DNA of 64,000 bases. Origin: Candidatus Eremiobacteria bacterium. GTDB lineage: Bacteria > Vulcanimicrobiota > Vulcanimicrobiia > Vulcanimicrobiales > Vulcanimicrobiaceae. Under the pieces are notes generated by a model. That model saw only the letters and a list, made by a program, of their open reading frames with translations, made no database searches and was not told where the DNA came from. The position numbers and the translations under genes were made by a program. Numbering within the stretch: position 1 is the stretch's first letter; every line of letters begins with the position of its first letter. Of this stretch, positions 21,465 to 61,037 are shown piece by piece. The stretch spans positions 640,001-704,000 of the forward strand of contig CAVWUU010000001.1 of the NCBI GenBank assembly GCA_963758295.1, in the 5' to 3' direction.

Positions 21465-22630
21465 TTAACGGCGATTTCGCCGGCTTTGATTACGGCTTGC
21501 GGAGAACGCAGCGCGCGAACATCTTCGCCGGCGTCGCCGTCGAGCAGCAGCAGGTCGGCCGGTTCGCCTGCGGCGAGGACGCCGCGGTGCAATCCCGAGC
21601 AGTTCAGCCGCGACGGCGGTTGCTGCGTGCAGCGCCTGCTGCGGCGTCATGCCGAGCAGCGTGTGCATCAATTCCACTTCGTAAGCGTAGTTATCGTGAA
21701 AATTGATACGGCGTACCGGCGTCGGAGCCGCCCGCGATCTTCACGCCGCCTTCGAAAGCACGCCGGATGTTGCGCTGCATCGCTTCGTTCACCAACTCCG
21801 CCTTTGCGACGACCCAATCGGGCTGAGCGCCGTTCCCGACATTTTCTAAGATGCACGTCGGCGCGGTCAGCGTGGGCACGAGATAGACATCGTGAGATTT
21901 GAACAAGCTCGATCGCTTCGTCGTCGAGCATATGGCCATGCTCGATCGGAATCGATGCCCGCGCGCAAGAGCGTTCTTGATCCCTTCCGTGCCGATTGCA
22001 TGTGCAGCAACGCGCAAACCGTGACGGTGTGCTTCATGAATTGCAGCTTCGAGCTCTTCGGGAAGCAGCTGCGCGTTGCCGGGAACGGCGCCTTTCGTCA
22101 GAACGCCGCCGGTTGCGATGACTTTGATGCAATCGGCGCCGGCCCAAAGTTGCTCGCGCACGGCTTTGCGGGCTTCCCACGGACTGTCGATCGTGCGCCC
22201 GAGAAACCAGCCGTGGCCGCCCGTCATGCACAGCACCGATCCGGCCGTGCGGATGCGCGGGCCGGGGATCGGCCCCGCGTTATGGCGTCGCGCAACGTCC
22301 GCGACAATGGCGTTGGAACATGCCGAGGTCACGAATCGTCGTGACGCCGGACGCCAGCGTTTTGCGCGCGTTCTCGACGGCGCGCAGCAGGCGTTGGTTC
22401 GGCGTCATCGACGCAACCGCGCCCATAGAGTTCGGGCTCGCCGCTCATCTCGAGATGAACGTGCGCGTTTACAAGCCCCGGCGTAACGCACGCGGCTATG
22501 CGATCGTAGCTCGTACCGTCACCTGCGGCGCGAATGTCGCAACGATTGCGGCGCCGTCGATAACGATGTCGACGTTCGTCTGCGGCGCTGCGAGCGTGCC
22601 GTCGTAGAGCTTTCCGGCGCGAACGATCAT
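21465..22630 (-). CDS. Amidohydrolase (Xaa-Pro dipeptidase-like), multiple frameshifts
   Basis: PGLVNAHVH, GADCIKVIATGG, VAAHA, GSDAGTP, G.PADL across frames. Confidence 0.8.
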
Positions 22631-23567
22631 GGAGCGGCCGCGCGGCAGCGCGAGCGTCGGAAGCTTCCAATGCCTGGAACGTTTTGCTGGTGAGCGTGTG
22701 GCCGCAGACACGCTGCCGATGAAGCGTGACGCGGCGCGCACTTTGGCGAGATCGACGCCGGTTTCGATGCCCATCGAATGCAGCAGATACAGCACGTCTT
22801 CCGTACCGACGTTCCCTGTTGCGCCCGGGGCATAGGGACATCCGCCCAGGCCGCCGGCAGAACTGAATCGAAGATCGTGCACGCCGTGCTAGCAGCGCCG
22901 CATAGATATTGGCAGCGCGGTGCCGCGCGTATCGTGAAAGTGAAACGCGAGATTGTCGAGCGGAATGTGCTTGTAGCAGAGCCGGAACGAGCTCGTCGAC
23001 TTGGCTCGGGACGCCGACGCCGATCGTATCGCCGACGGAAAGTTCGTCGCAGCCCATATCGATCAGTTTCGACGCGACGTCGACGACCGTTTTGGCGTCG
23101 ATCGTGTCGCCGAACGGTGAACCGAACGCGGTCGACACGTAGCCGCGCACCCACATGCCGTCTTTCTTTCGCGGTAGACACGACGTCGTCGAAGATCGAG
23201 ATCGACTCGTCGATCGTCATGTTGATGTTGCGGCGCGTGAACGTTTCCGAGCTGCGCGTGAACACGGCGATGGCGTCTGCGCCGGCCGCTTTAGCGCGTT
23301 CGTAGCCTTTCATATTCGGCGACGAGCACGGGATAGCGCACGCCCGGCGCCTTCTTCGATTCGCGTGAAAACGTCGGCGGCATCGCCCAGTTGCGGAATC
23401 GCTTTTGGGCTGACGAACGACGTCGCTTCGATCCAGCTGCAGCCCGGTCTCGGAGAGCAGGTCGATGTAGCGAATCTTGTCGTCCGTCGAGATGCACCTC
23501 GTGTTCGTTCTGCAAGCCGTCGCGCAGCGCCCATCTCGCACAGCGTGACGGATTTTGGAAGGCTCAT
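22627..23567 (-). CDS. Hydroxymethylglutaryl-CoA lyase, multiple frameshifts
   Basis: RDGLQNE, TSFVSPKAIPQL, DTIGVG, GGLGGCPYAPGATGNV. Confidence 0.88.
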
Positions 23568-25512
23568 ACTTCTTCCAATCGTCGATCCAGCGGCGCACCG
23601 CCGCTGACGATGTCGCCTTCCTTAACGAGCACCGCTGTGACCTTCGCTGCGCCGCGTCGCCTCGATGCGATGCTCCATCTTCATGGCTTCGAGCACGACC
23701 AGGAGCCGCGCGTTCCTCGACTTCGTCGCCCTCGCGCACGGCGATCTTGACGATCTTACCCGGCATGGGCGAGCGATGCGGCCGTCGCCGCCGCCGGCGC
23801 GCGCTGCCGCCGCTCGGCGGTGGGCGGCAGCGCGCAAAGTGAAGCGCTGTACGTCGGGCCGGCGAGAAGCGCGCCGCGTACCGTCGTCGAACGACCGGCC
23901 GTTCGACCGTCAGCGTCGCCGCCGAAACGCTTCAGATGATCGGCCGTGCACCCGAGCGCGCAGCTCTCCGTCGACGTCGCCTTCCAGCTGCCAGCGAGTC
24001 CGGTCGCCGGTTGCGTCGCGTCGATCGTGAAGCGCGCGCCGTCGCTTTGCAAGCGAACCGGCATGCCGACGCCCGCCAGGCGCCAGGCGCATCGCCGTCG
24101 AGCAAGCAATGCCGCGGCGCAAGCAACGCTGCTTCCTTGGGGTGCGGCTTCGCACGAAAGATCGATTCGTCGAGCCGCTGCGGCAAGAAAACTCGTGGTC
24201 GTCTTTCCTTCGCGATACCATTCGTCGCGAACGATCCACTGCAAGCAGCGGAACGTTTGCACGAACGCCCTCGATCACGAAATCGCTAAGCGCGGCATCC
24301 ATCCGCGCGACCGCGTGTTCGCGCGATCGCTTCCGAAACAATCAGCTTCGCGAGCATCGGATCGTAGTAGACGCTGACTTCACTTCCCGTCGTAACGCCG
24401 GCGTCGACGCGAACGCCCGGTCCTTCCGGCGGTTGCCAACATGCGATCGTCCCGGTTGAGGGCAGCATGTGATTCGCCGGGTCTTCCGCGTAAATGCGCG
24501 ACTCGATCGACCACCCTCGCGGGCGCACGTCGCTCTGCGAAATTGTAAGACGTTCGCCGTTCGCGATTCGCAACTGCCATTGCACCAGATCGACACCGTA
24601 TACGAGTTCGGTGACGGGATGCTCCACTTGCAGGCGCGTGTTCATTTCGAGGAAGTAGTAGCGCCCGTCTTTGTCCAGCATGAATTCGCACGTGCCGGCG
24701 TTTACGTAGTTTACCGATTGCGCGGCGCGCGACCGCAGCGCCGCCCATCTCGGCGCGAAGTTCCGGCGACAGCGCTACCGACGGCGCTTCCTCGACGATT
24801 TTTTGGTGACGCCGCTGGATCGAGCATTCTCGCTCGCCTAAGTGAATGATGGTGCCGTGCGAGTCCGCCAAGATCTGAAACTCGATGTGCCGTGGATCGC
24901 GCAGATAGCGCTCCAGCAGGACGGCGTCGTCGCCGAAAGCTGCCAGCGCTTCGCGCTTTGCCGCTGCAAGCGCTTCGTCGAACCGCCTCGAGTGATTCCA
25001 CGACCCGCATGCCGCGACCGCCGCCGCCTGCGCTCGCTTTGATCAAGAGCGGAAAACCGACGCTCGGGCTTCGTTGCGAAGACGTTCGCCGGACTGATCG
25101 TCGCCGTCGTATCCCGGTACCGTCGGAACGTCGAATTCGCGCACGCGTTGCTTCGCCGCGATCTTGCTGCCCATGGCGGCCATTGCGTCCGGCGACGGGC
25201 CGACGAAGATCAGTCCCGCATCGGTCGACGGCCTGGCAAACGCCGCTCGTTCCGAAAGAAAACCGTACCCCGGATGCACGGCGTCGGCCTTCATATGCGA
25301 TCGCGGCGGCAATGACCGCGTCGATATTCAGATACGATTCCGGTGCGGGCGCCGGTCCGACGCAGCGTGCGTCATCCATGAACTCCAAGTGATATGCATT
25401 CGCATCCGCTTCGGAGTAAATGCCGAGCGGCGCGATGCCCATTTCCCGCGCGCCGCGCGCGACGCGAACGGCGATTTCGCCGCGATTGGCAATGAGCAAG
25501 CCGCCAAATCAT
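23564..25512 (-). CDS. mccA: 3-methylcrotonyl-CoA carboxylase biotin carboxylase/BCCP subunit, multiple frameshifts
   Basis: [46 protein letters not shown]. Confidence 0.88.
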
Positions 25513-26296
25513 TGTGCAAACTCCGCGGGGCGACGCTCGAGAAACGCGCGCAAGCCTTCTTGGCCTTCTTCGCTTACACGACGTTTTGCAATGGCGTGCT
25601 GCGGTAATGTCGCGCGACGCAGTCGTAGTCACTCGACGCAACGTCGACGAATGAGTTGTTTGCTGCGGCCGTCGCCGTGGGGCCCGGCGGTACGCAACTC
25701 GCCGAGGACGCGTTCGACGCGCACGTCGAGCGTGTCCAGCGTGGTGACGATTTCGTGGACCAGGCCAATTTGCATCGCGCGCTGCGCATCGAAGCGTTCG
25801 CCCGTCAAGAACAGCGCACGCGCGTTAGACATGCCGATCTTGGGCAGTACGAACGGCGAGATTACCGCGGGAATGATGCCGAGTTTGACTTCCGTGAACC
25901 CGAAAACCGTTTCGTCGCTGGCAATCACGATGTCGCAGACGGCCGCTAATCCGGCGCCGCCGCCCAAGCGCCGCGCCGTGGATGCGGCCGACCACCGGCT
26001 TCGCGCAGCGGTCGATCGCCCGGAACATATCGCTCATGCGCTTCGCGCGTCCCCGACGTTCGCGTCGTAGCTCAATTCCAGCGCGCCGCGCATCCAATTG
26101 ATGTCCGCGCCGCCGCAGAACGACTTGCCCTCGCCGGCAAGCACCACGGCGCGAACCGTGTCATCGGCCGCTCAGTTGAGTGAAAGTTTCGCGGAGTTCG
26201 CGGATGACGTCGGCGTTGAAGGCATTGCGGACGTCGGGGCGCGCAAGCGTCACGCGCGCGACCGCGCCGGTCGTTGAAACGGTAGATCGTAGCCAT
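25509..26296 (-). CDS. Enoyl-CoA hydratase (methylglutaconyl-CoA hydratase-like), frameshifted
   Basis: FCGGADI, GGGAGL, FTEVKLGIIPA, LTGERF; leucine catabolism context. Confidence 0.85.
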
Positions 26297-26360
26297 GGCG
26301 GACCGTTCAGTTCGTCCTTTCATCCGAAGCCCGCCTTGGGGGCGTTATACTAGTATTAGA

Positions 26361-27159
26361 ATGCGGAAGAAATCTATCGTTATGCGGTAACCACGCGCCT
26401 GAGCCACTGGCTCTGGGTCATCGCCTTCGCGGTGCTCGTTTCCAGTGGACTGCAGATCTTCAACGCGGCGCCCGTATTTGGACGCCTCGGATAAGTCCAA
26501 TCCGGCGCGGCGCGTTCTTTCGATCCAGTCGCCGGCGGACGGCGTCGGGACCACGACGCTCTTCGGGCGAACCGTTACCACGACCGGATGGCTTGGCTGG
26601 ACGGACGACGGGATGGGCGGCAAAGGGGCGCGCGCGGTTCCCGAGCTGGATCACGATCCCATCGTTCCAAGATCTAGCCGACGGCCGGCGCTGGCATCTG
26701 TTCTTCGCCTGGTTTGCGCTCTTATGTTGGCTCGCGTGGCTCGTCTCGAGCGCGATCAAAGGGAATCTCCGCGACCTCGTGCTCCGGCCTTCGGACCTGC
26801 CGAAGCTCTGGCCGATGCAAGCCTATTACCTGCGCTTGCGCAAAGAGCCGCCGCCGCACGGGACGTACAACCCGCTGCAGAAAGCGTCTTATACCGCAAT
26901 CATGTTCGTCATCGCGCCGCTAGTCGTGCTTACCGGGCTCGCGCTTTCCCCTGGAATCGATGCCGTCGCGCAGCCGCTAACGGCGGTCTTCGGCGGACGG
27001 CAGTTCGCAAGGCTTTGGCATTTCGCGGGAATGCTGCTTCTGATTGCCTTTTTCGTGATTCACACGTTCCAAGTTGCGACGCAAGGCGTCTTCAATCAAA
27101 TGCGTTCGATGATAACCGGCTGGTATCGCGCCGGCGAGCGTGACGGAGTAGGACCGTGA
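26361..27159 (+). CDS. Cytochrome b/b6-domain membrane protein, frameshifted
   Basis: RLSHW...SGLQIFNA, RRWHLFFAW, YNPLQK, ARLWHF. Confidence 0.85.
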
Positions 27160-27897
27160 AACGGAAGCTTTTTATCGCAAGCACGATCTCCTCAGCACTC
27201 GCAGCGTGCTCGCCGATCGGCACCGCGTTAAATCAGAACGAGCGTTTTCACGCCTTCCTTGGAAACGGGGAGAAAGTCTCGCATGCGCTGATCGGCACGT
27301 CGGGCCTGGCTCGTGAATACCGCGAAAGCGACGTCGACCGGCAGTTTCGCGTGAACGGCCTTGCAACGCCGAGCGACGCTCAGTATTCCGACTTGGTGCA
27401 GCGCCATTTTGGACCGTACCGCCTCGTCGTCGACGGAGCCGTCGAACGCGCGAGGCGCCTTCACGCTCGATCAGTTGCAAAGCCTGCCCCAAATGACGCA
27501 GATTACTCGTCACGACTGCGTCGAGGGTTGGAGCGCCATCGGCAAATGGAGCGGGGTGCGTTTGAGCGATCTGCTCGGGGCCGTGTCGCCGCGTTCCGAT
27601 GCGCGCTACGTCGTCTTCCATTGCATGGACAAAGACGATCAAGGCACCCCGTATTACGAAAGCCTCGATATGCATCAGGCGCGGCATCCGCAAACGTTGC
27701 TGGCCCTTCGCCTCAACGATGCTGCCCTCGATCCCGACCACGGCGCGCCGGTTCGTTTACGCGTTCCGACGCAACTCGGGTATAAGAGCGCCAAGTGGAT
27801 CGGCCGTATCGAAGTCGTCGGCAGTTTCGCGAATCTTTACTCCGGTAACGGCGGCTATTGGGAGGATCAGGGATACGAATGGTACGCGGGGATTTAA
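27156..27897 (+). CDS. Molybdopterin-dependent oxidoreductase (sulfite oxidase/MsrP-like), frameshift at about 27450
   Basis: RHDCVEGWS, HPQTLLA, HGAPVRL, GYKSAK, GGYWED. Confidence 0.88.
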
Positions 27898-28496
27898 GCG
27901 CGCTTCTGGCCTTTGCATTGCTCGCTGCAACGCCGGCTATGACGTTCGACCTCTCCGGGGATGGCTCGCAGTGGGCCGCCGGAATCAGCAAAAGAACGGT
28001 CGGGCACGCGAACGGCATGACGTACGCCCAGTGGTACATCGCGATCAAGCATAACGGAAGCGTGGCGTACGAATCGCCGCGCGACGGCGGCCCTCTCACG
28101 AAGGTCTCGAAGGCACACGGCGCAGAGATGTGGTTCCCTTCGCAATCCGCGCAGATCGTGGGCGCGGCTGCGTTGATGGGCTCGAGTGCGCAACAGCTTG
28201 TCGTCGACTCACACGAGACGGGCGCTGATTGCGGCAGCGCAACGGTAACGATTTTTCGCTACGACAATGCCTCGCGCAAAGTCGTTCCGGCCGCCACGGT
28301 GCAAAACGGGTGCGAACTCACCGCCAAGATCAGCGGCTCAAACGTCGTGCTAACCGGTCCATATTACGCGAAGAACGCCGCGATGTGCTGCCCGACCAAA
28401 CCAAAAGCCACGGCAACGCTCGTGTATCGCAATTCTCGCTGGATCGAAACCCCGCAATACTTCGCCCTTTATCCCAACGCTTTTCCACGAATGTAG
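27879..28496 (+). CDS. Hypothetical secreted protein with C-terminal CCP motif
   Basis: Signal peptide; YAKNAAMCCPT. Confidence 0.65.
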   Translation: MVRGDLSALLAFALLAATPAMTFDLSGDGSQWAAGISKRTVGHANGMTYAQWYIAIKHNGSVAYESPRDGGPLTKVSKAHGAEMWFPSQSAQIVGAAALMGSSAQQLVVDSHETGADCGSATVTIFRYDNASRKVVPAATVQNGCELTAKISGSNVVLTGPYYAKNAAMCCPTKPKATATLVYRNSRWIETPQYFALYPNAFPRM

Positions 28497-33841: not shown

Positions 33842-34336
33842 TCAAGCGCGCTCGAGCGCTTGCGCCGCATTAGAAAGCGGCGTCGCCAGCGACGGAAGCT
33901 GAACGGCTAGGACGCGAAACACGCGCGACGCGTACCCTGCAAGCGAAAGCGTCGGGTCGATCGCGCGCGCAACCTCGTCGATCGGCGGCGGTGCTCGATG
34001 CAAAATCATCGCGGTCGTCATCAGCGGATTTGCGAACAGTCCCACAAGCTCGAGTCCCCCATCGGTCGAGCGCTCCAGCGACGGCGGAAACGCGTTCCCG
34101 GCCGGAATCCCGGCTGCTGCCGAACGCATGCGAGCGACCGCCTCGCGAAGCCGCGCGCCGGCATCGCTGGATTCGTCACCATCGAGCGCCGTTTGGAGCT
34201 TCGCGAGGTCCACGCCGTGCTCGCTGGCAATGGCCGAGACATCGGAGTCGGCCAGAAGCCCAGTGAGGATCGTGTTTCGCGAAATGTCGCCGGCAAAGAG
34301 CCGGTGCATGAAGTCGTTCGTTGCTACATACCGCAT
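33842..34336 (-). CDS. Hypothetical protein
   Basis: 164-aa ORF abutting the MCO remnant. Confidence 0.5.
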   Translation of the reverse strand: MRYVATNDFMHRLFAGDISRNTILTGLLADSDVSAIASEHGVDLAKLQTALDGDESSDAGARLREAVARMRSAAAGIPAGNAFPPSLERSTDGGLELVGLFANPLMTTAMILHRAPPPIDEVARAIDPTLSLAGYASRVFRVLAVQLPSLATPLSNAAQALERA

Positions 34337-34638
34337 CTAGATGGTTTGAATTTTAGCCATCATGCCGCCATCCTCGTGGTCGTAGAATATGACAGTGGAA
34401 CGTGAACGTTCCCGGATCACCGGGTCGCGGAAGTCCACTAGCGCCGTTACGGACCCGGCAACGAAGGTGTTGTGCTCGCCCGGCGTGCGGGGCGCAATGA
34501 CGACCATATCGTTCCATTGGTGAGAGACCGCTTTGCCGTTGACGGTCTGAACCGCGAAATGCACTCAACGGTTCCAACTCCGCACTCGGATACGGCCAAA
34601 GCCGGAGCGAGCGCTGCAAGCGCAACTTTAGTACGCAA
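34337..34638 (-). pseudogene. Multicopper oxidase remnant (leader joined to last about 75 aa)
   Basis: Frames give HFAVQTVNG...DFRDPVI / GTFTFHCHIL / DHEDGGMM, the type-1 Cu HCHxxxHExxGM motif. Confidence 0.78.
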
Positions 34639-35758
34639 AGAGCAGCCCTGCGCCGAGCTGATACGTGCGATCGCTTTGACGCGTGCCTTCCAAGGTGAAG
34701 CGGAAGTTGCGCGCGGGACGCATTACGAGCGAGAGCGTGTCGGCAGCTTGGCGAAGATTGAATCGATCGTAGGTGTTGTCGTATCGATAGTACAGCGAAA
34801 GTCCGCCGCTGAAATGCCAGCCGGTTTGTAAGAACCCGCCGGCGGAAAGCAAGCCCAGTCCAAAGCCGTCGGCGCTCGAATCTCCGCCATGTTGCAACAC
34901 GGCTTGCGCTTCGATTTTATTACGTTCGTAACCGACGCCATAGCCGTCGCGATGGAACCGATCGTGAACGGGCCCGAGCGCGCGATTTCCTTGATACCGG
35001 TACGCGTACGCCGTGAAGTCCGGCCCGAGTGTTTTCGACAGGGAGCCCATCACGTCGACACCGTCGCTTGGGAAACCGCTGCCTCGATCGACGGCTTGCG
35101 CGAGAACGAGATGCCCGGCGAAGCCGCGACGGTCGTCGGTGAGATAAAGATCGGTTCCAAGGCGCGGATCGAAAAGATTGAAGGTGTTGGTCCCGACCGT
35201 TTGGTCGAAAATGCCGTAGTGTGATAACGTGGGGCGCTGCGTCTCCGGATCGACCGGAAGGGGCAGTGTGAAGTCGCCGATGCGCGCGTGAAGCTGCGGA
35301 CCCAGCGGGTCGCTCGTGAGCGGTTGGCGCACGTCGGCCCAGATATCCCGAGGACGCCCCGGCTCGCCGCCGTCGACGGCGTAATTTTCGAAGTAGTAGC
35401 TTGCGTTGGGCCCGAGGGATCCGGCGGATAAGATCTCGACTTCGTCGACGATCGCCTTCGGAAGCGGCGCGGCGCCTTCGTCGCTGGTGCCGGCACTTGA
35501 ATAGGCCAGCGCAACCTTCACCGCGACCGGAAAGACCCCACGTGCTCCGCCCCCGAGCCGAAAGCCGTTGTGCATGAAGTATTGGCCGAACGCATTGAGC
35601 TGCGGAACCGTCGTATGACATTGCTGGCACGAGAAGCCGTAGCGGTGCGCAAACACCGGCAACGCAGAGGCAGGACGAGGCGCAGCAAACAACCCGAGCG
35701 CCAGCGCGAATATGGCAATCCCAATACGAAAATTAGGCACGCCTAAATATTGCCCCAA
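34628..35758 (-). CDS. Cyc2-like monoheme cytochrome c-porin fusion (alternative GTG start 35740)
   Basis: Signal peptide, ALPVFAHRYGFSCQQCHTTVPQLNAFG..F..NGF, amphipathic beta-strand body, C-terminal aromatic beta-signal LLFAY. Confidence 0.78.
   Translation of the reverse strand: MGQYLGVPNFRIGIAIFALALGLFAAPRPASALPVFAHRYGFSCQQCHTTVPQLNAFGQYFMHNGFRLGGGARGVFPVAVKVALAYSSAGTSDEGAAPLPKAIVDEVEILSAGSLGPNASYYFENYAVDGGEPGRPRDIWADVRQPLTSDPLGPQLHARIGDFTLPLPVDPETQRPTLSHYGIFDQTVGTNTFNLFDPRLGTDLYLTDDRRGFAGHLVLAQAVDRGSGFPSDGVDVMGSLSKTLGPDFTAYAYRYQGNRALGPVHDRFHRDGYGVGYERNKIEAQAVLQHGGDSSADGFGLGLLSAGGFLQTGWHFSGGLSLYYRYDNTYDRFNLRQAADTLSLVMRPARNFRFTLEGTRQSDRTYQLGAGLLFAY
35731..35748. promoter_or_regulatory. 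Palindromic operator, DtxR/MntR-like
   Basis: AA-TTAGGC-AC-GCCTAA-AT; extra GCCTAA half-site at 35762. Confidence 0.5.
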
Positions 35759-35926: not shown

Positions 35927-36328
35927 ATGATCGACACGGGGTACATAGCCGGCCTCCGCGAGAGCGGTTTACCACCAAGGGGCACACCGAAAAATTATCT
36001 CATGGCATGGCTTCTCGTCATGCTCAAAGACCACAACCTGCACGGCTACGAAATCATGAAGGAACTCAAAGAGAAGTTCGACGTGATCACCGAGCCGGGC
36101 ACCGTTTACCGGGCGCTACGTCAACTGGAACGCGACGGATACATCTCATCGTGGTGGGATCCAAAAGACCAAGGACCGGCACGCCGCATTTACACCGTCA
36201 CCGACGCCGGCTGCTCGGCGTTACGGCTCTGGAATACGGCCCTCGAACAATACCGTTCTAATCTGGAGCAATTTTTCGTTCTATATGCTAGCAAGCATCA
36301 GGCTCTCGGGGATCGTAACTTAGCCTAA
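35927..36328 (+). CDS. PadR-family regulator, PhaQ-like
   Basis: PKNYLMAWLL...LHGYEIM...PGTVYRALRQLE..G.I.S.W...GPARRIY. Confidence 0.85.
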   Translation: MIDTGYIAGLRESGLPPRGTPKNYLMAWLLVMLKDHNLHGYEIMKELKEKFDVITEPGTVYRALRQLERDGYISSWWDPKDQGPARRIYTVTDAGCSALRLWNTALEQYRSNLEQFFVLYASKHQALGDRNLA

Positions 36329-51740: not shown

Positions 51741-53403
51741 TTACATCGACTCCGGCGCGGAAACGCCGATGAGGTCGAGCACTTCGGCAAGGACCGTCTT
51801 GGTGGCGATGCAGAGACTCAAGCGGCCGAGGCGCGTGTCTCGGTCGTCGGTGAGAATCTTACACGCCGTATAAAATTGATGGAACTCGGAAGCGACGTCG
51901 CGCGCGTACTTCGCCAAACGGTGCGGCGCCAGGTTCTCTGCGACGCCGCTGACCACGCGCGGAAGTTCCGCGAGCCGCGCCGCGAGCGCCATTTCCGCGG
52001 GATGCTGCAGCGCGCTTAACGCGTCGCCCGCCTCTGCCGCCGCAATGTCGGATTCGCCGGCGTTTTTCAGCACCGATGCGATGCGTGCATGGCCGTATTG
52101 CACGTAATACACGGGATTCTCATTACTTTGTTCGACTGCGAGTTTCAAGTCGAACGTGAGCGGCGACTCGGCAGCGAGCATGATGAAGAAGAAACGGGCT
52201 GCGTCAACGCCGGCTTCGTCTAGAATGTCGTCCAGCGTAATGATGTTACCCGCGCGCTTGCTCATGCTCACCTGCTCGTTTCCGCGCATGAGCGTAATCT
52301 GTTGCGCGATCAGCACGTCGAGCAGCATCGGGATGGCCCATGGCCGCGGCTACGGCTTTAAGCCGTTCGATATAGCCGTGGTGGTCGGGCCCGAGAATGT
52401 CAATGACGCGCTCGGCGCGCTGGAATTTTTCGTAGTGGTAAGCGACGTCGGGAGCAAGATACGTCGGCCGGCCGTCGGAGCGCACGAGCACGCGGTCTTT
52501 GTCGTCGCCAAACGACGTCGTACGGAAATAGAGTGCGCCGTCCCGTTCGTACGTGAGGCCCATTTCGCCAAGTTTCGCGAGGTCTTCCATAACGCGGCCG
52601 CTTTCGTGTAACTCGCGTTCGCTTTGCCAAAGATCGAAATGTACGCCGAAACGCTCCGCTGTCGCCTGCTGTTCGGCAACGAGCGTGTCCCGGCCGAACT
52701 TTGCAAAGGCGGCGAGCCATTCCGATTCCGGGCGTCCCATCCACTTGTCGCCGTCGCGTTCGGCAAGCTGCGTCGCGATCGGAAGCAGATACTCGCCGGG
52801 ATAGCCTTCCTCCGGGAAGGGAAACGACGCGTCAAAGTGCTGCGCGTACCGCGCGTAAAGAGAACGGCCAAGCGTGTCCATCTGGCTGCCGTGATCGTTG
52901 ATGATCCACTCAGTGAACACGTCGTAGCCGCAATAGCGCAGCGCACGTGCCAGCGTGTCGCCGATAGACATCGTGCGCCCTTGCACGACAACGAGCGGCC
53001 CCGTGGGATTCGCGCTCCCAAACTCCAGCGAAATGCGCGTGCCGTTTGCGCCGAACCGGCCGAACTTACGGCCGTCACGCAGAATCGCCGCAAGCAACGT
53101 CTGCCAGACGAACGGAGCGCAGCGCAAATTGATGAACCCGGCAACCGGATCGATGCTCGAGAAAAGCGACGCAACGTTCGGCGCTTTGTCGCGTACGTCG
53201 GCCACAAGCGTCGTCGCAATATCGTTCGGGGAACGTTTTGCGACTTTCGCAAGCGTGAACGCAACGTTGGTTGCGAAATCGCCGAATTCCGGGCGCCGCG
53301 GCGCTTCGAAATTGACGTCCGCGGCCGGCGCGTCCGGATAGCGCGCCGCTACGGCGTCGGCAATCGCTCCCGCAAATGCGGCGAGTGCGTCCTGAGGCAG
53401 CAT
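51741..53403 (-). CDS. argS: Arginine--tRNA ligase (frameshift at about 52328)
   Basis: FGDFATN, EFGSANPTGP, FGDDKDRV, GPDHHGY, MSKRAG, YVQYGHAR. Confidence 0.93.
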
Positions 53404-53410
53404 GGCGGCG

Positions 53411-53873
53411 TTAGTGGTGGTAGGGCTCATTGCGCGCGATCTTCGCCGCACGGTAGAGCTGTTCCAGCACGATCATCCGCGCCCACTCATGCAAAAACGT
53501 CAATGGCGACAGCGACCACAGAAAATCGGCGCGCGCTCGCAGCGATGTGTCGGCGCCGTACGTTCCGGCTACGACAAAGGTCATGCGCGAGACGCCATCG
53601 CGCGTGACCGCCATCAGCCGCTGGGAAAGCTGCTCGCTGCTTAACTCGGTGCCGGTGCGTTCTAGGAGCCACACGCGTTCGTCCGGTCGCAACAGCTTCA
53701 GGATACGTTCGGCTTCTTCGCGCTTTGCAAGTGCCGGATCGCTGCCGTCGCCGGCTCTCAACTCGAGTTCTTCGTACGGAAAGTAAGGCGACAGCCGCTT
53801 CCGGAATTCGCCGCACGCGTCTGCGACATACCGGCGTGCGCAGCTTGTCGATCGCGATGAGGCGCAATTGCAT
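53411..53873 (-). CDS. rlmH: 23S rRNA m3-pseudouridine1915 methyltransferase (frameshift near 5' end)
   Basis: SLSPLTFLHE, EQLYRA, EPYHH. Confidence 0.9.
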
Positions 53874-54761
53874 TGTCCTAAGATAACAGAGTCAGCTGTC
53901 CCGTGCGCGCGAACCGGTTCGCCGCGACGCTCTACCTCGCCGTCCAATTCGAGCATCGACGAGCGACGCGAGCAGCAGCGACGGCGGTGCTGCCAAGCGC
54001 TGCGCGAGCATATCCAAGTCGGCCTCGCCGTTTTCGAGTTCGCACAAGAGCCGTTCGTCCAGCTCGGCGCGCTCGGGGCGTACGCCGCTGGTCGACATCG
54101 CCGGGTCCAGAGCCAGCGCTTCCAAGACGTCGAGCCGCGTTACGAGCGAGGATCGCGCCGTCGCGAAGAAGTGCGTGGCACCCGGCGACGTGCGGGCGAT
54201 CGACGTCGCCTGGAACGGCAAAGACGGGAATGCGGCCCGCCGCCCAACCGGCCGTATTCAAAGCGCCGCTGCGCGCGGGCGCTTCGACCACGACGACGGC
54301 GTCCGAAAGGGCCGCAACTACGCCGTTGCGTTGCAAGAAATTGGTGCGGCTGTGCCGGCCGTTCCGGCGGAAATGGCGAAAGCACGGCGCCGCCGCTTGC
54401 GACCATCCGTTCGGCGAGTTCGCGATTTCGTGCCGGAAAAAATGCGTGCGTGGCCCCGCGCCGAGCACGCCGACCGTCGGAGCGCCGCCGTCGAGGGCGC
54501 CTTCATGCGCGCGCGCGTCGATGCCGAGCGCGAGACCGGAGACGATGCAGCAACCCGCGGCACCTAAGATCGCGCGCGATCGCGCGAGCGATGCGTCGCC
54601 CGTAGCCTGTTGCTGCGCGCGTCCCAACGATTGCGACGCATGGCTTGCGCAAACCCTCGAGCGCGCCGCGCACCCATAGACCGTCGCCGGCCAAGCGCGC
54701 AGTCGCGGCTTGCGCGAAGCGTCTGAAAGTCGGCGACCGGCGCGAAGCGGACGTCGTCCAT
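53870..54761 (-). CDS. dprA: DNA-processing protein DprA, multiple frameshifts
   Basis: AIVGTRAATGYG, SGLALGID, FLQRNGVV, VEAPARSGAL, FAVPG. Confidence 0.85.
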
Positions 54762-54912
54762 CCGGAGCGTTCACGCCACGGGTCCCGGACGCAAGGAGGA
54801 AACTCCTGGCGCGCCTGGCCAGGGGGAATTGGCTTCCCGTGAATGAAGTTGCCCCGCCGCAAACCCAACGCCGGGCCGGCCCGTACCAGCCCTAGCTCTG
54901 GAGGAACCTCAG

Positions 54913-55062
54913 GTGGCAGCAGAAGCCTATTGCGTCAAATGTAAGACCAAGCGTCAGATCAAAGACGCGGTTCAGATCACCATGAAGAACGGCCGTCCCG
55001 CGACCGAAGGCAAATGCCCCGAATGCGGCACGAAGATGTTCAAGATCGGAGCGGCGAGCTAG
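54913..55062 (+). CDS. Small zinc-ribbon protein, DUF5679-like
   Basis: SD GGAGG; EAYCVKCKTKR...KNGRPATEGKCPECGTKMFKIG. Confidence 0.85.
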   Translation: MAAEAYCVKCKTKRQIKDAVQITMKNGRPATEGKCPECGTKMFKIGAAS

Positions 55063-55087
55063 CTCGACCCGTCTTCGAAAGCCGACG

Positions 55088-55114
55088 AAAAGGGCCGCCT
55101 GCGCGGCCCTTTTT
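55088..55114 (+). terminator. Intrinsic terminator
   Basis: AAAAGGGCCGC-ctgc-GCGGCCCTTTTT. Confidence 0.85.
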
Positions 55115-55137
55115 GCGTTTCCTATGGGTAGTGGCCG

Positions 55138-55166
55138 TATAATACAGGCACCCACTAGATGTGGGG
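55138..55166 (+). promoter_or_regulatory. -10 TATAAT followed by putative NrdR box
   Basis: TATAAT 55138-55143; CACTAGATGTGGGG 55153-55166. Confidence 0.55.
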
Positions 55167-55197
55167 GCTACGCGCCATCTGAGGAATCGGTAACCAG

Positions 55198-55652
55198 CTG
55201 ATCTGTCCGACTTGCCGCAAGAGCGAGACGCGCGTCGTCGACTCTCGCGACGACGAGACCGTAGTCCGCCGCCGGCGCGAGTGTCTCGATCCGCGCTGCA
55301 AGCATCGTTTCACGACCTACGAGCGAATGGAAGCCCCGCGCCTCTTCGTCGTGAAGAAAGACGGCCGGCGCGAGCAGTACAGTCGCGACAAAATTCTCAG
55401 CGGCTTGCGCACGCGCGTGCGAAAAGCGCCCGATCTCGCGAGAGCCAGATGGAAGCGGTCGCCGCCGATCTCGAACGCGAACTATTCGCGCGCGGCGAGA
55501 GCGAAGTCAGTTCCACGATGGTCGGCGAGAAGCTGATGGAAGCGCTGAAGAACCTCGATCCCGTCGCGTACATCCGGTTTGCGAGCGTCTACCGTTCGTT
55601 CCGAGACATCGAAAGTTTCAGGGAAGAGTTAGCGCAGCTGCTTGCCAAATGA
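55198..55652 (+). CDS. nrdR: Transcriptional repressor NrdR (frameshifts; start approximate)
   Basis: CPTC...RVVDSR...RRRREC...[24 protein letters not shown]. Confidence 0.92.
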
Positions 55653-55661
55653 CGCGCAGCG

Positions 55662-56122
55662 ATGACGAGTTCCGTGCGGGTCGCGCTCAAGCGCCTGCCC
55701 GAGGGTCAAGGTTTGCCGCTTCCCGCGTATATGTCGGAGCACGCTGCCGGCGCTGACCTTTGCGCCGCCGTCGCCGCCGATCTACGCTCGCGCCCGGCGC
55801 GCGCGCGCTCGTTCCGACCGGTTTTGCCATCGCGCTGCCGCCTGGCTTCGAGGCGCAGATTCGTCCGCGCAGCGGGCTCGCGCTGCGAAGCGGCGTGACG
55901 TGTTTGAACTACACCGGGAACAATCGACGCGGATTACCGCGGACCCGTTCAGGTGATCCTCGCGAATCTGGGCACTGAACCGGTCGTGATCCGGCGCGGC
56001 GATCGCATCGCGCAAATGGTCGTTGCTCCGGTCAGCACGCGCGCAGTTTGACGTCGTCGAAGAACTTGCCCGTTACCGAGCGCGGTGCCGGCGGATTCGG
56101 AAGCACGGGAGTTTCTTCGTGA
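55662..56122 (+). CDS. dut: dUTPase (frameshifts)
   Basis: [40 protein letters not shown]. Confidence 0.92.
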
Positions 56123-57099
56123 ACGTCTACATCGTGGGACGAGGAGCGGTCGGAACGTATCTGGGCGAGCGTACTGCAGTCGATCGGCGTCGAAGTCGCG
56201 TACGCGCCGCGCGAACTCGAGGCGGTGACGCCGTACGATGCCGACGTGGCGATCGTGGCGACGAAAGCGTACGACACGGAGGGCGCGATCGAAACGCTGC
56301 GCCGGGCCGTCTTGCATCCGGAGAAGTGCGTTTTCGTTACGCCGCAAAACGGCGTCGGCAATGAAGAGATGCTCGCCGCGGCATTCGGCGCCAACAACGT
56401 CGTTGCGGCCGCGCTCACCGTTCCGGTGGATCGCGATCCGAGTGGAAACGCCAATGCCGCGCGTGAAGGCGGCCTAGCGTTTGCGCCCGTGGGCGACTCG
56501 GCGTTCAATTGGCTCGTTGCCACCTTCGCCAGCAGCGGCATGAACGTGAAGGTCGTCGACGACTGGCGGGCGTTGAAGTGGAGCAAGCTCGCACTCAACG
56601 TCGTGGCCAATGCGAGCTGCGCCATTTTGAACGTGCTGCCGAACCGGCTCGTGCACTTCGAAAAGATTTTTACGCTCGAGATCCGGATGATTCGCGAAGT
56701 CAAGGCCGTGATGCAGGCGATGGCGATCGTCACCGATCGATCTCCCGCGCTACCCGGTGAAGGCGCTCTTCGGCGTGGCAAGTCTTCCGAGCCCGATCGC
56801 GCGGCGCGTCATGGCGACGTCGCGTGGCAGGCGGTCGCGGCACGAAACCGCCGTCGCTGCTTTTGGATTTACGCTCAGGGAAAGCCGCAAACCGAAGTCG
56901 ATGTGCTCAACGGCGCGGTCGCGCGCGCCGGGACGCGAATGCAACGTCCCGACGCCGGTCAACGCGGTGTACGCGCGGGTGTTGACGACATCGCGAACAT
57001 GCCGCAGCTATGGGCGAAGTACCGCGAACGTCCCGAAGCGCTGGTAGCCGAGGTCGAAGCCGAGATGCGGCGCATCAAAGCCTTGAGGAGCGGAGCTGA
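56119..57099 (+). CDS. panE: Ketopantoate reductase family (frameshifts; end approximate)
   Basis: VGRGAVG, ATKAYD, QNGVGNEE, KWSKL..N, TEVDVLNGAV. Confidence 0.8.
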
Positions 57100-57105
57100 G
57101 GGTTC

Positions 57106-57956
57106 ATGCGCGACCCTAACGTTCCGGAGTCCATCGAAGGCTGGTGGATTCTCCACCGTATGTTCGGTTTCGACCGGCGCGCGTGGGATGCGCTCACGGA
57201 GAAGCGGCGGATCAAATATTCCGGACATGCGCGCGATCTTTTCGAACATCTGAAGTCGGGCGCCGACGGCGACGCGGGTCTCGCGCAACTCGTAGGGCAC
57301 AAGGGCGATCTCATGATCACGCACTACGCGCGCGAATACGAAGGGCTGGCTTACGCGCAAACGCTCGTCGATAAACTCGAGCTGCGCGAGTTCTTGAAGC
57401 CGCTCGGTTCCTACGTTTCCGTGCTGGAAGTCGGGACTGTACGACGCCACCGGGAAGATTCACACCGAGCTTGCCCAGCTTGGACTAACGCCGAATTCTG
57501 CGGATTGGGCTAATGCGTTCGACGAACGTATTCGTCAAGCAGGCGCAAAGTCCAGTACATCGCGCCGCGATTGTTTGCGAAGATTCCGCCGCGCCGGTTC
57601 GCGTGCTTCTACCCGATGAACAAACGCCGCGAAGGGGAGCGACAACTGGTTCTCGCTTCCGTTCGAAGATCGCGCGAAGCTCATGACGGAGCATGGCAAA
57701 GTTGGCCGTTCCTATCATGGTCAAGTGACGCAGGTAATTTCGGGATCGATTGGGTTCGACGACTACGAGTGGGGCGTCGACCTTTATGCCGACGATCCGC
57801 TGGTGTTCAAGAAGCTTGTATACGAAATGCGTTTCGACGAAGCAAGTGCGCGCTACGGCGAGTTCGGTCGAATTTTGGAGCGGCATTCAGTTTTCTCCCG
57901 ACGAGCTTCGCGTCTTCTTGGACGGTGATGCGATCCCGCAGCTTCAAGTCAAATAG
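57106..57956 (+). CDS. chdC: Coproheme decarboxylase/chlorite dismutase family (frameshifts)
   Basis: [46 protein letters not shown]. Confidence 0.85.
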
Positions 57957-58734: not shown

Positions 58735-59541
58735 ATGGCCGAGAAGCTCCATTACGGTGAAATGACGTGGCCGGAAGTGCGGGAGGCGGCCGCACGTGAG
58801 TGCGTTGCCGTTGTGCCGATCGCGACGATTGAAGATCACGGCCCGCACCTGCCCATCGACACGGATTTGCGCCTGTGCACCGCCGTTTGTGAAACGGCCG
58901 TATCGCGCGCCGCCGGTCGCGCCGTACTCGTGCCGCCCATAAATCATGGCTACAGTCCGCATCACATGGACTTCCCCGGCGCCATCACGATCGGAGCGCA
59001 CACCCTCATCGATTACGGTGTCGACGTCTGCCGAAGCCTTGCGCATCACGGATTCCGCAGAATCCTAATCGTCAACGGTCACGGCAGTAACTCTCCGTTC
59101 ATCGATATCATCGCTCGTCTCACCGTCGTGGAAACAAGCGTTCTAGCGGCGGCGGTGAATTATTGGGCTGCGCCAGGCGTTCGCGCCGTTGCCGAAGACC
59201 TTCGGGAGTCGGATAAAGTGGGCGGCATGAACCATGCCTGCGAATTCGAGACTTCGCTGTATCTTGCGTTGCGCCCCGACCTCGTGGATATGTCAAAAGC
59301 CGAACGCGAGTTATCGCATCGCCCGACAAAGAATTATTGGACCGATTTGATTGCGGGCGACGGTCCGCTGGTCATGATGGAACATTGGTCTTCGCTTACG
59401 GAAACCGGCGTCATGGGCGATCCGGCGAAAGCAACGGCGGAAAAGGGCCGGAAGCTTCTCGATGCATGCGCAAACGGCATCGTCGAACTTATCGACGAGA
59501 TGCGTGCCCGGCCGCCGGCGCAACGCCGCGACCATCACTGA
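58735..59541 (+). CDS. Creatininase family amidohydrolase
   Basis: EDHGPHLPIDTD, HHMDFPG, NGHGSN, HACEFETS. Confidence 0.9.
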   Translation: MAEKLHYGEMTWPEVREAAARECVAVVPIATIEDHGPHLPIDTDLRLCTAVCETAVSRAAGRAVLVPPINHGYSPHHMDFPGAITIGAHTLIDYGVDVCRSLAHHGFRRILIVNGHGSNSPFIDIIARLTVVETSVLAAAVNYWAAPGVRAVAEDLRESDKVGGMNHACEFETSLYLALRPDLVDMSKAERELSHRPTKNYWTDLIAGDGPLVMMEHWSSLTETGVMGDPAKATAEKGRKLLDACANGIVELIDEMRARPPAQRRDHH

Positions 59542-60963
59542 ACCGCATTTCTGCGCTCCTTGCGATGCGCTCGGCCATGTTCGAAAACACGTATTCGTGG
59601 AAAATTGCAATCGTATACCAGTAAAGCAGCCCGAATAAGCCCCGAGGCTCGTAGAAGGCGGTTTGTCTAAGCAGCGATCCGCTTGCGTCGGGTTCGGCTT
59701 CGAACTGAAGCCACGCGTACCCGGGCAGCTTCATTTCGGCGCGTAGGCGCAACAGGCGGCCGGGTTCGTACGCATCCACACGCCAGAAGTCTATGGCATC
59801 GCCGAGGCGCACGTCGCTTTGCGAACGGCGGCCGCGGCGGAGTCCCGCCCCGCCGGTGATGCGGTCGACGAATCCCCGAAGTTTCCATAGCGCTTTCGCT
59901 GCGAACCATCCTTGCGTGCCTCCGATAGCCGTAAACGTTCTTGCGAGCATTTCCGGCGGAGCGTCACAATGCCGCGTGCGACGGTCTATGAGCATGCCTT
60001 CGGCAACGCCGGAGAAATCACGAGGAAGCGCGCGCAAGTCATACGCGTCGAACCATGTCGTTTCGGGGCCGATGGTGGCATAGCGGTTCAGCGCGCGCAA
60101 AACCGCCATTCCATACGTGTCCGGGGCAACGTCAAAATCGCGACCCGCCTTAGCCGTTCGAGCGACGACTTCGTTGCGCAAACCTAGAATTAACGGCTGC
60201 GCAATCCGCGCCGGAATCGGTGTGACGAGATGAATCCAGTACGACGAAAGCCGGGCGTGAAGAACGGCACGATCACGATCGTGCGTTTCAAGCCGCGGGC
60301 TTCGGCATAACGGAGCAGCATCTCGCGATAGGTTAGAATCTCGGCGCCGCCGATTTCGTAAATTTGTCCCGCAGTAGCGGGGCGATCGAGCGTCTGTAGC
60401 AAGTACGCGAGCACGTTGCGAATCGAAATCGGCTGGCAGCGAGTGCGGACCCACCGCGGCGTAATCATCACCGGGAGGCGCTCCGTAAGATAGCGCACCA
60501 TCTCAAAGCTAACCGAGCCGCTTCCGATGATCTGCGCGGCGCGAAACTCGGTGACCGGAATACCGGTCGAGCGGAGCCGCTCGCCAACCTCATGGCGGCT
60601 GCGCAAATGTTCCGAAAGCTCGTGCTTCTCGTTGCCAAGGCCGCCCAAATAGACGATCCGCTTTACACCGGCGCGCGCCGCCGCTTCGGCGAAATTCCGG
60701 GCGGCGGTGCGGTCCGCGTCGCGATAGCTGCGCATTGCCATCATGCTGTGCACGAGATAGTAAGCGCAATCAATATCTTTCAGCGCTTCATCTAAGCCCC
60801 GGTTCTCGAGCACGTCGCCGTCCGCAATTTCGATATCGCCGAACCGCCCGGACAAACGCGCCGGGTGCCGCGCCAGCGCGCGCACCGCGTGGCCGCGCTG
60901 CAACAGCAGCGGGACAAGCCTGCCGCCGATGTAGCCCGTAGCACCCGTAACGAGAATGCGCAT
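59489..60963 (-). CDS. SDR/NAD(P)-binding protein with DUF2867 domain (frameshift at about 60250)
   Basis: TGATGYIG, YYLVHSM, HLRSRHEV, IDFWRV, AEMKLPG. Confidence 0.88.
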
Positions 60964-61037
60964 TACGTGGAGCTATACCCTCAGAGACCAGCAAGGCCGC
61001 TCAAAGCCGATTACGCCTGGAACGCGCTTGGGCGTAA

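Follow-up and report, generated by a model that had tools for sequence, protein, structure and literature searches.

A divergent Cyc2-like cytochrome–porin gene beside the remnant of a multicopper oxidase gene in a Vulcanimicrobiaceae genome

The porin gene and its neighbours

The window, i.e., the whole stretch of 64,000 nucleotides that was analysed, carries on its minus strand an intact gene encoding a putative monohaem cytochrome c–porin fusion protein, followed directly by what is left of a multicopper oxidase gene (Table 1). The porin reading frame starts at a TTG codon and encodes 376 aa, or about 370 aa when counted from the next GTG, and the real start codon may lie a few codons further on. 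The putative signal peptide ends in an A-S-A stretch read by eye at residues 30–32, and a hydrophobic helix occupies residues 10–25 in the AlphaFold2 model. The Cyc2-type motif, the only CxxCH of the protein (C44–H48) and a PxL motif come next, and the protein terminates in LLFAY. The peptide quoted in a preliminary description of this DNA, its single CxxCH and its C-terminal LLFAY were all recovered in this translation.

Table 1. Features at the porin locus, with window coordinates and the basis of each assignment
Feature	Position	Strand	Basis
Cyc2-like monohaem cytochrome c–porin fusion, 376 aa, intact	34628..35758	-	ORF; homologs; 16-strand model
Putative Sec signal peptide, residues 1–32, A-S-A cleavage site	35663..35758	-	Read by eye from the sequence
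Variant Cyc2 motif A-L-P-V-F-A-H-R-Y, residues 32–40	35639..35665	-	FAHRY in 103/114 scored homologs
Lone haem c attachment site C44-x-x-C47-H48	35615..35629	-	Invariant in 91/91 aligned homologs
PxL motif P52-Q-L54	35597..35605	-	P52 and L54 invariant in 91/91
Predicted 16-strand beta-barrel with conserved charged residues	34634..35527	-	AlphaFold2 model; Foldseek; VIA-align; conservation
Multicopper oxidase remnant, 230 nt, last ~76 codons	34337..34566	-	Comparison with a 537-aa counterpart; directly downstream of the porin gene
164-aa protein, no Pfam match	33842..34336	-	Starts right after the stop codon of the stub
Divergent PadR-family regulator (putative)	35927..36328	+	PF03551, E 1.9e-19; synteny

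A relaxed form of the Cyc2-type motif occurs at 2 of the 65 CxxCH-bearing frames of the genome, both of which encode full-length members of the family of the window protein, and is absent from five codon-shuffled genomes; its presence is thus not attributable to chance. Estimates of dN/dS against three orthologs (0.15–0.30, rough values since dS is near saturation) indicate that the porin gene is under purifying selection.

The oxidase remnant, which went unnoticed in the preliminary description, lies within the 290 bases past the porin stop codon. Relative to its 537-aa counterpart, residues 1–460 are gone and only residues 461–536 are left. A 1-nt frameshift near 34415 is compensated by another near 34383, and the HCH copper motif is no longer in frame as a result. 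The complete set of three cupredoxin domains and four in-frame copper motifs, by which three-domain multicopper oxidases were recognised, is present in the oxidase of genome G014 and not in this stub. In G014, where the genes are arranged identically, an intact oxidase of 537 aa and of the lipoprotein type takes the place of the stub. At the DNA level, the stub resembles the oxidases of its own clade no more than it does other oxidases. The window genome (82% complete) yielded no intact copy of this kind of oxidase, and a more distant oxidase is encoded on its contig C4.

We rejected a long-read artefact as the origin of the frameshifts, since an independent contig (run X5; 179 nt, 34338–34516) runs across both of them with two mismatches and no gap. 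In addition, two contigs from related strains (run X1) lack 210 and 314 bases of the stub, i.e., they carry shorter stubs; together with the run X5 contig, this indicates that the decay is real. The large deletion is itself unlikely to be a long-read artefact, although its junction is not formally bridged: the contig of run X3 (34553–34741) extends about 12 bases beyond the junction, short of the 31 bases set by our bridging rule. In the window lineage, the multicopper oxidase gene has been reduced to a frameshifted stub and the porin gene has been retained. The 60 bases ahead of the stub were also considered as a relic of the oxidase signal peptide, which they resemble, but they do not align with the signal region of the G014 gene.

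Among the loci examined, the gene of the 164-aa protein is confined to this locus and to the congener G001, where the ortholog also precedes it, and it is likely to be carried on the porin transcript. On the other side of the porin gene, the PadR-family gene, a putative regulator by family match, is followed by a gene for a protein of metallo-beta-lactamase fold, and this pair is conserved upstream of close orthologs. A scan for promoters and terminators gave only chance-level matches.

Elsewhere in the window (22300–27900, 52200–57300 and 59500–61000), several housekeeping-type genes seem to be split across frames, probably through long-read indels; judged by their translations, they include those for biotin carboxylase, enoyl-CoA hydratase and arginyl-tRNA ligase.

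Fold and family of the window protein

The AlphaFold2 model of the window protein (mean pLDDT 87.6, pTM 0.82) presents 16 strands over residues 78–375, in line with the beta-strand-rich body described earlier and with the barrel expected of such a fusion. Foldseek placed 16-strand porins on top (Omp32, E 5.8e-12), and the best VIA-align match was OprP (2O4V; Z 25.5, rmsd 3.4, 296 residues aligned), which a passage of PMC8406198 gives as one of two structural matches of Cyc2PV-1. Residues 29–48, which include the haem motif, are modelled with pLDDT below 50; the haem domain would plug the barrel on its periplasmic side. Conserved acidic (E106, E108, E124, D129, D138, D170, E172 and D293) and basic (R137, R175, R270, R325, R347 and R353) residues of the barrel probably point into the pore. 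Basic residues are about as numerous as acidic ones among them, the closest likeness is to anion-selective porins, and H216 and M237 are the only conserved histidine and methionine, so that the barrel has no conserved Met/His-rich track.

Searches of Pfam, NCBIfam and PDB sequences returned no family match for the window protein; no Cyc2 model was found in Pfam or NCBIfam, nor a Cyc2 among the PDB sequences. ESM Atlas searches matched only hypothetical or porin clusters, and none of ten distant homologs that were looked up has an informative name. Among 8000 scored candidates, 340 are homologs at E<=0.001, and the named members of the best 120 belong to Baltobacteraceae, Tumulicola and Vulcanimicrobiaceae, which places the host in Vulcanimicrobiota (Eremiobacterota). 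At the same threshold, the family profile reaches 3773 cluster representatives. The strict Cyc2 motif is present in none of the 120 close homologs, of which 112 have the relaxed form, and in 19 of the 88 newly listed representatives of at least 300 aa. One strict-motif protein, P0162, shares 26% identity with the window protein over 349 aa (E 1e-23).

The published criteria for Cyc2 proteins include the consensus AXPXFAR[Q/K][T/Y] (PMC8406198, section 12), which varies between clusters. The ALPVFAHRY of the window protein agrees with it in AxPxFA and in the final Y, and departs from it twice, with H for R and R for Q/K. The haem motif, PxL, a length above the FeGenie filter (at least 365 aa) and a predicted 16-strand OprO/OprP-like porin are present. 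The preliminary description of a Cyc2-like cytochrome–porin fusion thus holds for the haem motif, PxL, length and barrel, with FAHRY in place of the strict AxPxFAR(Q/K)(T/Y). Full-length homology to strict-motif proteins, combined with these features, identifies the window protein, as judged from sequence and model, as a divergent Cyc2-like protein. A warning in section 13 of PMC8406198 states that divergent Cyc2 homologs may do something else.

Compared with the Cyc2 iron oxidases treated in passages of PMC8406198 and PMC13692758 (A. ferrooxidans Cyc2, M. ferrooxydans Cyc2PV-1, G. bivora Cyc2TAG1_1 and Leptospirillum Cyt572), the window protein has in common the AxPxFA motif, one CxxCH, PxL and a 16-strand OprP-like barrel, the latter predicted here, and perhaps also a signal peptide. 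It differs from them by FAHRY in place of FAR[QK][TY], and its family is shorter (median 364 aa, with 60 of 113 close homologs below the 365-aa floor of FeGenie). Moreover, the neighbours in this family are a lipoprotein multicopper oxidase and SCO rather than cyc1/cox, and the hosts mostly do not have RuBisCO; an oxidase role for the window protein would be assigned by analogy.

Oxidase neighbours and paralogs in related genomes

Eighty metagenome loci of the subfamily were collected, 48 of which extend at least 800 bp downstream of the porin gene. The next gene encodes an oxidase in 22 of these 48, YceI in one, a DUF1501 protein in one and other proteins in 24. After pooling, 64 subfamily loci were reduced to 55 distinct relatives by removing 2 partial and 7 near-identical ones. 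An intact oxidase gene directly follows the porin gene in 24 of the 55, a figure that leans upward since three short loci (L116, L138 and L148) were taken in only because the start of the oxidase was visible. These 24 relatives fall into two separate clades. The window protein itself belongs to a clade of seven rows (support 96) with four oxidase-linked orthologs. The trees were made by a quick method from proteins other than the characterised Cyc2 proteins, and do not separate gain from loss of the oxidase (three changes).

All 26 neighbouring oxidases examined have kept the copper motifs and the axial Met. A SCO-type gene follows the oxidase in many loci, and in L007 a CusF–SCO fusion occupies this position. 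A complex of porin, haem and oxidase predicted for G014 scored 0.45, against 0.01 for the best control, with 0.58, 0.45 and 0.15 in the three runs. Contact agreement was at least 0% and pLDDT at least 83, so the three runs need not agree on any contact. In the benchmark of this score, 116 of 157 solved pairs attained the mark, as did 2 of 215 mismatched ones; these two scored at most 0.60, i.e., in the same low range. The modelling thus weakly suggests a direct porin–oxidase complex in G014. Since 31 of the 55 distinct relatives have no adjoining oxidase, the porin can do without the oxidase, and the two may not be direct partners. At one chromosomal site the oxidase is intact (G014), a stub (window genome) or absent next to the porin ortholog (G001 and G012), which shows the haem porin to be independent of this neighbour.

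The window genome encodes a second Cyc2-like protein (C1:288361-289484), also missing from the preliminary description, whose gene is flanked by genes for a cupredoxin, SCO and a two-component pair. The complete run, Lipoprotein_15 – SCO – cupredoxin – Cyc2-like – response regulator – kinase (L074:734-3988; G000:C1, about 287700–290900), is conserved in several relatives. A sister subfamily with the motif FAHQY (L009–L072, e.g., L047:3121-3690) has YceI as the next gene in 52 of 72 genome loci, and an oxidase gene behind YceI in nine. A literature search for Cyc2 together with YceI returned nothing. No description of an oxidase or YceI pairing with Cyc2-like porins in this phylum was found in the open-access literature searched; subscription journals and figshare trees, which lie outside it, may hold these sequences.

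The copper partners recall the rus operon of Acidithiobacillus (cyc2-cyc1-cup-coxBACD-rus, as given in part of PMC10654088), in which a cytochrome–porin delivers electrons to a blue-copper protein. The likeness resides in the paralog beside cupredoxin and SCO. Unlike the rus operon, neither locus of the window genome has a cytochrome c4 or a terminal oxidase, and the copper partner in the family of the window protein is an oxidase with four coppers that can itself reduce O2, present as a stub in the window genome.

Cyc2-like proteins were detected in 37 of 39 published genomes of the class, with up to five matches each (39 of 41 in the tool count, before two unpublished genomes were dropped). 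RuBisCO-family matches occur in 9 of these 39 genomes, and in 7 of the 9 the match is strong; neither the five congeners of the window genome nor the 82%-complete window genome itself gave one. The contrast between 37 genomes with the family and 7 with strong RuBisCO matches makes a Cyc2-like gene a poor marker of iron lithotrophy.

The redox genes recognised elsewhere in the window genome comprise a CcsA-like gene, three haem-copper oxidases (caa3-, aa3- and cbb3-type) and several monohaem cytochromes. The genes at G000:C1:349729-351908, adjoining the CcsA-like gene, encode a Rieske protein and a cytochrome b to which a cytochrome c is fused at the C terminus.

Possible roles of the porin

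We tentatively favour, at a little short of an even chance, a reading by analogy in which the window protein would be a non-respiratory metal oxidase port, most likely for Fe(II), serving metal housekeeping rather than energy supply, whose oxidase partner has been lost. The protein is predicted to be exported, to receive haem c from the cytochrome c maturation system of the genome, and to fold into a porin whose periplasmic mouth is plugged by the haem domain. A cation would be held in the pore by the conserved acidic residues and pass an electron to the haem. In close relatives, the lipoprotein multicopper oxidase would take this electron and reduce O2 to water, as the G014 model weakly suggests, in a short circuit that conserves no energy. 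In the window lineage, the oxidase gene is a frameshifted stub and the porin gene remains under purifying selection; since the oxidase has been lost and the porin kept, the haem may now discharge to carriers encoded elsewhere, either small c-type cytochromes or the cupredoxin beside the paralog. Fe(II) is the likely substrate by likeness to distant Cyc2 proteins; a search for evidence in favour of Mn(II) found none. The lack of an oxidase beside 31 of the 55 relatives, the many conserved arginines and the resemblance of the barrel to anion porins speak against the favoured reading.

The preliminary description had proposed that the organism may take electrons from extracellular Fe(II) or Mn(II). 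As a source of energy, this is not supported: the family is near-universal in the class, with or without RuBisCO, the ORFs listed for the window showed no gene for a cytochrome c or a terminal oxidase, and the only redox neighbour of the porin gene is the decayed oxidase, which in the intact operon would conserve no energy. A respiratory iron oxidase, transferring electrons from Fe(II) through the haem and periplasmic cytochromes to the caa3 or cbb3 oxidase and so supplementing the energy of a heterotroph, is possible given these oxidases of the genome, though we regard it as unlikely. The architecture is that of three tested Cyc2 proteins (PMC8406198, in part), the genome also has a second aa3 oxidase and a Rieske/cytochrome b–c set, and the loss of a short-circuiting oxidase would fit. 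Baltobacteraceae are moreover predicted iron oxidisers, with abundances as high as 89% in certain tailings samples, according to a passage of PMC13594681. Against it stand the near-universal, multi-copy distribution of the family, the RuBisCO result in the window genome and its congeners, the absence of respiratory genes among the ORFs listed near the locus, and a term search of the accessible text on the cultured representative (PMC9758169), which returned no passage on Cyc2 or iron oxidation.

The recurrent copper neighbours, i.e., the CusF–SCO fusion, the SCO-like genes after the oxidase in many loci and the SCO and cupredoxin beside the paralog, could instead indicate a port for copper or iron acquisition or resistance. 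The haem, perhaps acting as a reductase, would then alter the oxidation state of Cu or Fe in the pore. The oxidase would be a member of the same copper operon resembling CueO, which is a cuprous oxidase, and not the acceptor of the haem electron. This reading is slightly less probable still: SCO and CusF may simply supply the oxidase or cupredoxin with copper, the neighbours of the window gene include no recognisable copper ATPase, efflux pump or iron permease, and the barrel shows no conserved Met/His-rich track. The weakest reading, which we consider quite improbable, has the haem trading electrons with hydroquinones, phenolics or humic groups and a laccase-like oxidase or YceI, which binds isoprenoid quinones, as partner; YceI beside the sister subfamily, two members fused to a chemoreceptor and the likeness of the barrel to anion and organic-acid porins favour it, but YceI adjoins the window subfamily in just one of the 48 metagenome loci, and the portion of the literature examined yielded no Cyc2-type protein with an organic substrate.

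Whichever substrate is preferred, the gene in the window provides weak grounds for iron lithotrophy, and nothing in these sequence comparisons demonstrates an iron-based life of the cell. This bears on the use of Cyc2 homologs as common markers of iron oxidation. Cyc2-like genes of Eremiobacterota are already published, and the parts consulted of PMC8357290 and PMC13594681, which concern the same phylum and host family, call these bacteria putative iron oxidisers on their account. Those parts give single BLAST or FeGenie calls, do not describe the near-universal multi-copy presence, the subfamilies or the partner genes, and may concern another subfamily; a term search of the supplement of PMC8357290 did not give the cluster of its Eremiobacterota protein. 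The present work adds the series of partners and the class-wide radiation of paralogs, the window gene being an ordinary member of its clade. With the fold in 37 of 39 genomes, several paralogs and varied partners, this class makes it testable whether all Cyc2 homologs are iron oxidases.

On a broader view, which is doubtful, the Cyc2 fold would have become in Vulcanimicrobiota an outer-membrane redox module that combines with one partner or another: lipoprotein multicopper oxidase and SCO; YceI; cupredoxin, SCO and a two-component system; fused class I cytochromes; or a fused chemoreceptor. The porin–oxidase pair would then be an unreported two-protein, respiration-independent trans-outer-membrane oxidase, the substrates of most paralogs would be copper or organic redox shuttles and not iron, and Cyc2 calls in this soil phylum would largely be false markers of iron lithotrophy.

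Two kinds of fusion proteins were observed among the family members. In P0170 and P0189, a Cyc2-like porin is extended at its C terminus by one or two domains of the class I cytochrome c type, and Met-rich stretches are also present. In two other proteins, which belong to separate 50%-identity clusters (P0134, encoded at L031:1619-4924 on the minus strand, and P0127), a methyl-accepting chemotaxis receptor is fused in frame to a complete Cyc2-like cytochrome–porin through an internal stretch resembling a signal peptide, and the product may be processed as a polyprotein by signal peptidase.
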